Sequence record: OR845527.1
Reading direction: 5' to 3' (one strand)
From: Escherichia phage ECO95 1-6-1
Length of the DNA: 2,183 nucleotides
Part shown: positions 1,631-1,908 of the stretch, in pieces
How the letters are laid out: each line of letters opens with the position of its first letter
How positions within the stretch are numbered: position 1 is the first letter of the stretch
The notes under the pieces: generated by a model
Told to the model about the DNA's origin: nothing
Database searches by the model: none
What the model saw: the letters and a program-made list of their open reading frames with translations, nothing else
Translations under genes and position numbers: made by a program

Positions 1631-1658
1631 GTGGGTTATGTGGGTTACGTGGTAGTTA
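1631..1658 (+). repeat. Iteron block 1: two perfect plus one degenerate tandem copy in GTGGGTTAY orientation, 9-bp period
   Basis: gtgggttatg tgggttacgt ggtagtta; copies start at 1631, 1640, 1649. Confidence 0.85.
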
Positions 1659-1692
1659 AGTTTCTTAACATTCTGATTTTAAAGGGATTGAA

Positions 1693-1772
1693 TAACCCAC
1701 CAGTAACCCACTAAACGCCACTTATAACCCACTGGCAGGGCAAAATAACCCACTGCGAAAATCGTAACCCAC
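1693..1772 (-). repeat. Iteron block 2: five perfect copies in TAACCCAC orientation
   Basis: Copies start at 1693, 1704, 1725, 1746, 1765; start-to-start spacings are 11, 21, 21, 19 bp, roughly one or two helical turns. Confidence 0.85.
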
Positions 1773-1787
1773 CTTAAAAACGGATAA

Positions 1788-1816
1788 GTGGGTTATTTCA
1801 GGGGCTGAGTGGGTTA
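1788..1816 (+). repeat. Iteron block 3: two perfect copies in GTGGGTTAY orientation, 21 bp apart
   Basis: GTGGGTTA at 1788-1795 and 1809-1816. Copy 1765-1772 and copy 1788-1795 form an inverted pair across a 15-bp A-rich spacer. Confidence 0.85.
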
Positions 1817-1883
1817 CGTTTTCGTGTTGATTAAATGTTAACTTGTTGAATATATGTAATAAAAAATACTTAGCAAGCGAAGA
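1817..1883. other. AT-rich spacer between iteron blocks 3 and 4; candidate DNA unwinding element
   Basis: Seen in sequence: cgttttcgtgttgattaaatgttaacttgttgaatatatgtaataaaaaatacttagc is markedly AT-rich compared with the GC-rich upstream CDS and is bracketed by iterons. The DUE role is inference from the general architecture of iteron origins. Confidence 0.4.
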
Positions 1884-1908
1884 TAACCCAATAACCCACG
1901 TAACCCGC
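1884..1908 (-). repeat. Iteron block 4: three tandem copies in TAACCCAC orientation (one perfect, two with a single mismatch), 8-9 bp period
   Basis: ataacccaa taacccac g taacccgc, located about 40 bp upstream of the ATG at 1949. Confidence 0.8.

Follow-up and report, generated by a model that had tools for sequence, protein, structure and literature searches.

Locus and feature map

The DNA considered here is a stretch of 2,183 nucleotides from Escherichia phage ECO95 1-6-1 (sequence record OR845527.1; hereafter the window), which holds only the 3' end of a rep gene encoding a DUF927 initiator-helicase, a non-coding stretch of 345 bp (1604–1948) between the stop codon of that gene and the next open reading frame (ORF), and the start of that ORF. 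The non-coding stretch is filled with copies of a short repeat (iteron), RTAACCCAC, and an earlier note, made from the sequence alone, had proposed it as the replication origin of a mobile element. In the present analysis, the repeats, their non-randomness, their conservation, the identity of the element, the protein family, and the co-variation between the initiator C-terminus and the iterons were computed; nucleotides 1604–1948 very probably serve a capsid-forming phage-inducible chromosomal island (cf-PICI) of Enterobacteriaceae as its vegetative replication origin, which the DUF927 initiator would fire. The features referred to below are the following.

2..1603, plus strand: initiator/helicase gene, 3' three-quarters (533 codons plus stop), with DUF927 and a Walker A motif
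1312..1600, plus strand: C-terminal module of the initiator, about 97 residues; candidate iteron-recognition domain
1312..1911, plus strand: proposed specificity cassette (C-terminal module plus the whole iteron array), bounded by family-conserved sequence
1613..1621, plus strand: ACAGGTGAGG-like box (ACAYGTGAGG) between the rep stop and the first iteron, present in L001–L005 and L014–L031 whatever the iteron type
1631..1648, minus strand: iteron set 1, two abutting copies (GTGGGTTAT GTGGGTTAC), invariant in diverged homologues
1649..1691, no strand: AT-rich spacer 1, 70% A+T, with iterons of opposite orientation on either side; candidate melting region
1692..1772, plus strand: iteron set 2, five direct copies with starts at 1692, 1703, 1724, 1745 and 1764
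1788..1817, minus strand: iteron set 3, an inverted pair with a spacing of 21 bp
1818..1882, no strand: AT-rich spacer 2, 74% A+T; 22–25% G+C in 40-nt windows, the regional minimum
1883..1908, plus strand: iteron set 4, three direct copies, each abutting the next (ATAACCCAA / ATAACCCAC / GTAACCCGC)
1913..1926, plus strand: TTTTGTATATATAC box, 4 nt past the last iteron; right-hand boundary of the cassette
1949..2183, plus strand (start only): next gene, 111 aa in full, phrog_7232 (E 3e-74, function unassigned), a hypothetical protein in L001 and L002; outside the origin

The iteron array

A search for RTAACCCAC on both strands with at most one mismatch returned 13 matches in the window, 12 of which lie within 1631–1908; the thirteenth (1003–1011) falls in the coding region, outside the array. 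Ten copies are perfect (starting at 1631 and 1640 on the minus strand, at 1692, 1703, 1724, 1745 and 1764 on the plus strand, at 1788 and 1809 on the minus strand and at 1891 on the plus strand), and two plus-strand copies carry one mismatch (1883, ATAACCCAA; 1900, GTAACCCGC). The array reported in the earlier note is thus real, with 12 copies instead of the 13 given there: a two-mismatch search adds none within 1631–1908, the related loci described below are stereotyped at 12, and the third degenerate copy is therefore unsupported. The only two-mismatch site outside the array, at 1618–1626, is part of a box that is conserved irrespective of the iteron type. Windows shuffled with preservation of dinucleotide composition (n = 200) held a mean of 0.71 matches and a maximum of 4, none reaching 13, and in the 13.9-kb source contig the perfect copies of the motif are confined to the array region.

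When the 12 copies are aligned, T-A-A-C-C-C is invariant, the following A and C are each kept in 11 of the 12, and the preceding R is A in seven copies and G in five; the iteron unit is accordingly 9 bp long with 8 informative positions. The first iteron (1631) is separated by 27 nt from the upstream stop codon (1601–1603). The start-to-start spacing in set 2 is 11, 21, 21 and 19 bp, or about one or two helical turns. Overall, two inverted copies, a 70% A+T tract and five direct copies are followed by two inverted copies, a 74% A+T tract and three direct copies, so that AT-rich DNA lies between opposed iteron sets in two places. Opposed sets around AT-rich DNA also mark the origins of PICIs and Staphylococcus aureus pathogenicity islands (SaPIs). 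Spacer 2 (1818–1882), which lies between iterons of opposite orientation, is the best candidate for the unwinding element.

The initiator

The gene directly upstream was described in the earlier note as a rep-like P-loop gene. The part of its product encoded in the window scores 168 bits with Pfam DUF927 (E 4e-49; cut-off 22.6) and carries the Walker A motif EQSSAGKT at nt 530–553. The full-length protein, read from the identical contig introduced below (L010), has 711 aa, the first 178 of which are encoded 5' of the window, and matches DUF927 with E 4.7e-50; no other Pfam domain was returned for either version, D5_N, DUF5906, Pox_D5 and Rep_3 included. The initiator also matches phrog_1139, annotated as 'DNA primase' (E 5e-182), and is homologous to PDB entry 8tch, a staphylococcal 'Pathogenicity island protein' (E 6e-14), for which no paper was found; a weaker match is PDB entry 5dgk, the SCCmec helicase Cch (E 0.002).

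The mobile element

The window is 100% identical to the 13.9-kb IMG/VR provirus contig UViG_2724679271_000004 (L010) and 99.5% identical to a second contig of this kind, the IMG/VR provirus L007. Outside three short mosaic patches, L010 is 91–99.6% identical to an island that a few E. coli chromosomes carry between yhdJ and fis. This island encodes an integrase (int), an AlpA-type regulator, an antirepressor, an Icd-like protein, the DUF927 protein, major capsid protein, prohead protease, portal, head closure and head-tail connector proteins, HNH, TerS and TerL, and it lacks tail genes. Except for a single cassette, the window nearly matches islands of 15–16 kb in E. coli and Klebsiella that have the gene set of cf-PICIs. 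Published cf-PICIs, such as EcCIEDL933, EcCIGN02175 and KpCIDSM30104, are of the same type and order, with int-alpA-rep followed by capsid-protease-portal-connectors-hnh-terS-terL, no tails, an att site of their own in the chromosome, and a length of about 15 kb (bioRxiv 10.1101/2022.09.08.507074, 10.1101/2025.02.11.637232); such islands are defined further by helper-phage induction and by transfer with helper tails. The element is assigned to the cf-PICIs because its gene set and order, as read on the near-identical relatives L001, L002 and L033, match this published definition.

The complete sister cf-PICI L033 (NZ_CP069874.1) was entered for K. pneumoniae FDAARGOS_1323 as 'plasmid unnamed2', a circle of 15,995 bp, which fits an excised, replicating form. 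According to the same preprints, related cf-PICIs give replicating or covalently closed circular forms on Southern blots after induction (bioRxiv 10.1101/2022.09.08.507074, 10.1101/2025.02.11.637232).

Several other database records touch this element. Further 'plasmids' of 12–22 kb from E. coli, Klebsiella and Raoultella match the DUF927 gene (H51, H53–H55). The rep/ori region of this sister element is found with 98.7% identity at 99160–101345 of PQ569648.1 (H46), a 106-kb record that bears the name Klebsiella phage P12620-1, and positions 2877–3185 of OR851044.1 (H47), a 3.2-kb fragment named 'Salmonella phage S.Kent 1-2-1', are 100% identical to nucleotides 1–309 of the window.

A shared scaffold with a changing iteron

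The regions 3' of the DUF927 gene were compared in 22 related loci from more than 10 genera. The set includes E. coli islands at several attachment sites (L001–L005, L031, L032), IMG/VR contigs (L008, L012) and species-representative genomes (L014–L028) of Winslowiella, Pantoea, Cedecea, Rahnella, Citrobacter, Pectobacterium, E. albertii, Serratia, Tenebrionibacter and others. In all 22 loci, a short-repeat array begins 21–30 nt past the initiator stop, the position of set 1 being fixed at +21 to +30, and most of them have exactly 12 copies in the order, orientation and spacing of the window. The earlier note had named loss of the repeats from elements that keep the gene as a sign against its proposal; the homologous elements conserve both.

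The shared order begins with two inverted copies and four direct copies (11/21/21 bp); then comes the fifth direct copy, followed by an inverted pair with a spacing of 21 bp, three abutting direct copies and a TTTTGTATATATAC-like box. The 11/21/21 spacing of the first four direct copies is identical in most of the 22 loci, and the gap ahead of the fifth is variable (17 to 169 bp across the family). The terminal triplet, with a spacing of 8–9 bp, is likewise present in most loci; L018 and L020 keep only two of its copies, L031 has five, and the truncated arrays of L022 and L027 have lost it.

On this scaffold, the iteron itself changes. At least 8 sequences occur in the set, the types being TAACCCAC, TAACCCGC, GAACCAAC, GAACCACG, GAACCGR, GGGACAAC, GGGACAAG, GGGATAAG and GAGACAAC. 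Among the six loci with TAACCCRC-type iterons, 81 of 96 columns are invariant within the iterons, as against 76 of 243 elsewhere (Fisher p 2e-19), and in the TAACCC core the invariant columns number 71 of 72. Outside the two IMG/VR proviruses named above, the TAACCCAC iteron of the window turned up only in Winslowiella, in Tenebrionibacter and in two further viral contigs.

Individual loci depart from the common layout. L015 (4180–4640) has an insert of some 170 bp that separates its fourth direct iteron from its fifth, at the only gap whose length differs within the family. In E. albertii L022 (4621–5040) and Citrobacter sp. L027 (4606–5025), the array ends after 5–6 iterons and unrelated sequence lies beyond; decay or rearrangement may have affected the origins of these two loci.

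The C-terminal module and the exchange of a cassette

Comparison of the window with the island of E. coli 873.10 (L001) reveals a clean exchange. Nucleotides 1–1311 are 99.8% identical and nucleotides 1912–2183 are 95.6% identical, whereas 1312–1911 gives no blastn alignment at all; L001 has GAACCAAC iterons in the same positions as those of the window. The exchanged segment comprises the end of the initiator gene and the complete array. The alignment of 8tch to the initiator stops at ...AFLNA, exactly the left breakpoint of the swap, which indicates that the exchanged protein segment is a discrete C-terminal module. None of 5,426 complete E. coli genomes contains the cassette of the window, the best near match being 63 nt, even though the flanking sequence occurs among them.

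The same relation holds across the 22 loci. In the C-terminal 97 aa, pairs of initiators that share an iteron are 64–100% identical (median 76%), and pairs with different iterons have a median identity of 44%; identity over the preceding 435 aa has no predictive value for the iteron. For instance, the window and L001 are 99% identical in the N-terminal part and 49% in the C-terminal module, and their iterons differ, whereas the window and L014 (Winslowiella) are 89% identical in the N-terminal part and 85% in the C-terminal module, and their iteron is shared. In these sequence comparisons, the iteron type follows the C-terminal stretch of about 97 aa of the initiator, and not the rest of the protein or the neighbouring genes. 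We infer that the C-terminal module is the iteron-recognition domain, probably a winged helix; variable residues in it mark a putative recognition helix (...QFARALASAG...) and a putative wing (...GRYKKKALRKMGGKQ...) that may make the contacts.

The only other variable gene slot nearby, of the YlcI or ribbon-helix-helix kind, was considered as the source of the iteron binder and rejected, as L008 combines the YlcI of L001 with the iterons of the window. This YlcI/YnfO slot is a further mosaic patch (reverse complement of L010 1214–1486 against L001 12614–12949), occupied in the element of the window by an unrelated 64-aa ribbon-helix-helix-like ORF. The YlcI variants of related elements are 53–100% identical and uncoupled from the iteron type.

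Flanking boxes and signals

The TTTTGTATATATAC box was found by a strict pattern in 14 of the 22 loci and as close variants in most others, with all iteron types; it may belong to the site of unwinding or priming, or be a -10-like element. Irrespective of the iteron or the downstream gene, nearly every DUF927-type PICI origin has this box 3–6 nt beyond the last iteron (L001, L003–L005, L014–L032); it was not found in the D5-type origin of EcCICFT073. The gene that starts at 1949 is 95.6% conserved with the E. coli island despite the adjoining cassette swap.

Comparison with known replicons

SaPI Reps are self-loading ring helicases in which a C-terminal winged helix binds 6–12 short iterons directly 3' of rep, and SaPI origins consist of opposed iterons around an AT-rich centre that is melted without ATP (PMC9371898). 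The window resembles the SaPI replicons (SaPIbov1, SaPI1, SaPI5) in its homologous initiator of the Cch/DUF927 lineage, in iterons 3' of rep and in opposed sets at an AT-rich centre; in SaPIs, specificity resides in the C-terminal domain, as is proposed for the window. The differences are a Gram-negative host, iterons of 9 bp as opposed to 5–6 bp, and two modules of inverted iterons and AT-rich DNA as opposed to one; moreover, the C-terminal module of the SaPI proteins cannot be aligned by sequence with that of the window.

Among enterobacterial islands, EcCICFT073's pri-rep-ori segment maintains a temperature-sensitive plasmid and needs both rep and ori to do so (Fillol-Salom 2018, ISME J, PMC6092414); that article gives the iteron sequences only in its Fig. 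2a (PMC6092414). The EcCICFT073 origin was extracted here and holds about 11 GGTAGAYA repeats in 288 bp, in both orientations, around AT-rich DNA. As in the window, it lies immediately 3' of the initiator, and the two elements share a backbone (int, alpA, Icd-like and others). The helicase core of EcCICFT073 is of the D5_N/DUF5906/Pox_D5 type, these domains having been returned for its protein by the Pfam scan that also covered the initiator of the window, which makes this validated precedent analogous in layout but not orthologous in helicase.

The two initiators are also alike at the N-terminus. The first 160 aa or so of the DUF927 initiator (L010 10921–10442, minus strand) and the beginning of the EcCICFT073 Pri-Rep protein (L030 11242–11730) share 41% identity (E 4e-30); this segment has no Pfam match and belongs to phrog_2850, of unassigned function. 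Since the N-terminus is shared despite helicase cores of different families, PICI initiators look modular at both ends.

Among the closest known systems are classical E. coli PICIs in which DUF927 is combined with TAACCCGC iterons (at cspD/clpS in 2015C-3163 and at nfeF in A36, for instance), an arrangement present in about 297 complete E. coli genomes. They have the same initiator family, 12-iteron layout and flanking boxes; their iteron is one base apart from the TAACCCAC of the window, and their C-terminal module is 67% identical. The TAACCCGC arrays sit in classical capsid-hijacking PICIs, whereas the array of the window sits in a cf-PICI. Arrays can also be mixed: L032 has two TAACCCAC copies in a TAACCCGC array, and the window contains one TAACCCGC copy. 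The suggestion that the iteron marks an undescribed specificity group thus finds limited backing; a separate group is possible but, given the one-base difference from TAACCCGC and the mixed arrays, unproven.

Two other replicon types were considered and rejected. The alpha protein of the satellite phage P4, which is discussed in PMC6092414, is a multifunctional initiator that binds short repeats via its C-terminus. The repeats of P4 lie in two distinct regions, ori and crr, and not in one array directly 3' of the gene. A replicon of the P4 alpha type combines a primase with a D5-type SF3 helicase, domains that are absent from the initiator of the window; of the two comparisons drawn in the earlier note, the one with SaPIs and PICIs stands, in layout and homology, and the one with P4 does not, the D5_N and Pox_D5 domains being missing. 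A classical iteron plasmid of the Rep_3/RepA type is excluded by the lack of a Rep_3 match, by iterons of 9 bp as opposed to 17–22 bp, and by the lack of a TTATNCACA box.

Proposed mechanism and alternative explanations

The published layout of SaPI and PICI origins fits the anatomy of the window, and on this ground the DUF927 initiator would bind the iterons, melt the AT tracts and load itself; binding, melting, self-loading and origin function are all carried over from the work on SaPIs and EcCICFT073. After induction of the island by a helper phage, the initiator-helicase would be made from the gene directly upstream, and its C-terminal module of about 97 residues would recognise the 9-bp RTAACCCAC iterons. 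The 12 iterons would act as two modules, each with opposed iterons facing an AT-rich tract, and the spacing within the sets, contiguous or about 10.5–21 bp, would place the bound proteins on one face of the helix. Multimeric binding would then distort and melt one or both AT-rich tracts, after which the same initiator would load itself as a ring helicase and replication of the excised circle would start. The cassette at nt 1312–1911 would thereby set the specificity of the replicon.

The proposal that the array is the origin of a mobile element, already made in the earlier note, is borne out by the cf-PICI context, the homology of the DUF927 protein to 8tch and Cch, the PICI/SaPI layout, and the co-variation of the initiator C-terminus with the iteron in 22 loci. 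However, a number of observations weigh against it. The literature yielded no experiment showing binding or origin activity for any DUF927-type enterobacterial element, and the validated EcCICFT073 origin differs from the window in its helicase core (D5_N/DUF5906/Pox_D5 instead of DUF927) and has iterons of unrelated sequence. The Pfam scan of the 711-aa protein revealed no recognisable primase domain. Support for the fold of the C-terminal module is weak: the match to Pfam HTH_56 ('Cch helix turn helix') is sub-threshold in the window (E 0.018, 15.5 bits against a cut-off of 26.2) and in 6 of 16 homologues (best E 6e-4), a profile of the C-terminus against PDB sequences gave nothing below E 0.3, and an AlphaFold2 model of the C-terminal 153 aa from a 46-sequence alignment reached a pLDDT (predicted local distance difference test score) of 49 with an unreliable helix-helix-strand-strand pattern. 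This model was kept out of the fold search, as low-confidence models match meaninglessly. In addition, the origin contains no consensus for the integration host factor, no DnaA box (TTATNCACA, with none in the window) and no GATC cluster. The array lies inside an apparent unidirectional operon, in which a scan of 1500–2100 found no terminator, so that a regulatory role for the same sites is possible.

That last point leads to the rival with the most in its favour, although we consider it distinctly improbable: the iterons would be bound by the initiator but serve mainly in regulation, either of the downstream late and packaging genes or of copy number by handcuffing, with initiation taking place elsewhere. 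Plasmid iterons often double as operators and handcuffing sites, the last three iterons adjoin the conserved AT-rich TTTTGTATATATAC box, beyond which the next gene starts after about 25 nt, and rep and the downstream genes have no terminator between them. Yet no sigma-70-like promoter was detected on the plus strand in a scan of 1500–2100, the downstream gene varies among loci while the layout of the array stays constant, the 13.9-kb element has no second iteron cluster, and the two modules of inverted iterons and AT-rich DNA resemble origins shown to fire in SaPIs and EcCICFT073. A still smaller chance is given to the repeats being sites for another protein, namely a cos or pac site for TerS/HNH/TerL, a partition centromere, or integrase/excisionase arms. 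Short phased repeat arrays are also known from pac sites, parS/parC centromeres and attP arms, and the island has its own terminase and integrase; these roles are disfavoured because the cassette swap leaves the integrase and terminase genes unchanged, int, TerS and TerL being 91–99% identical between the element of the window and L001 while the repeats switch with the initiator C-terminus. Moreover, some 7 kb separate the array from int/att and some 5.5 kb from hnh-terS, the annotation shows no partition genes, and classical PICIs without a terminase large subunit of their own have the same array. Lastly, a functionless repeat, whether fortuitous or decaying low-complexity DNA, would draw only on the general AT-richness of the region and has next to no probability: none of the 200 shuffles reached the observed count, iteron cores are invariant where spacers have diverged, and 22 loci from more than 10 genera keep the architecture. 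A chance origin of the repeats is excluded.

With the array read as the origin of the cf-PICI, a more far-reaching scenario can be drawn, which as a whole is speculative and rather unlikely. The cassette would be a mobile unit, swapped by recombination between near-identical satellites at the ...EAFLNAYG coding stretch and the TTTTGTATATATAC box; TAACCCAC would be a distinct specificity without cross-reaction with TAACCCGC; the turnover would be driven by conflict, either because satellites in the same host are incompatible or because they evade helper-phage factors directed at satellite origins; and the two modules could permit the loading of two helicase rings, and with it replication in both directions. 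A cited parallel for helper-phage targeting of satellite origins is the attack of ICP1 Odn on the iterons of PLE (PMC8263062).

Significance

The kind of origin found here has been known since its description in 2018, and the window is almost certainly an ordinary, well-preserved new example of it. A full-text literature search for the motif together with 'iteron' returned only unrelated primer matches, and the accessible portions of the cf-PICI papers contain no description of an origin or iterons. In the accessible literature, no description was found of the constant scaffold of 12 iterons, of the pair of conserved boxes at the boundaries or of the natural exchange of the cassette; these features extend the known model and do not change it, and the current understanding of how such origins work is left as it was.

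Both the cluster of non-coding repeats and the 'DUF927 domain-containing protein' encoded upstream of it can be given a likely function, and the window is placed in a cf-PICI, one of a family of satellites for which movement between enterobacterial genera is known. For this initiator lineage, the comparison yields a table of specificities with 22 loci, at least 8 iteron types, one 12-iteron scaffold and one clean natural swap, which could guide domain-swap experiments, the incompatibility typing of PICIs and the detection of satellites in genomes.

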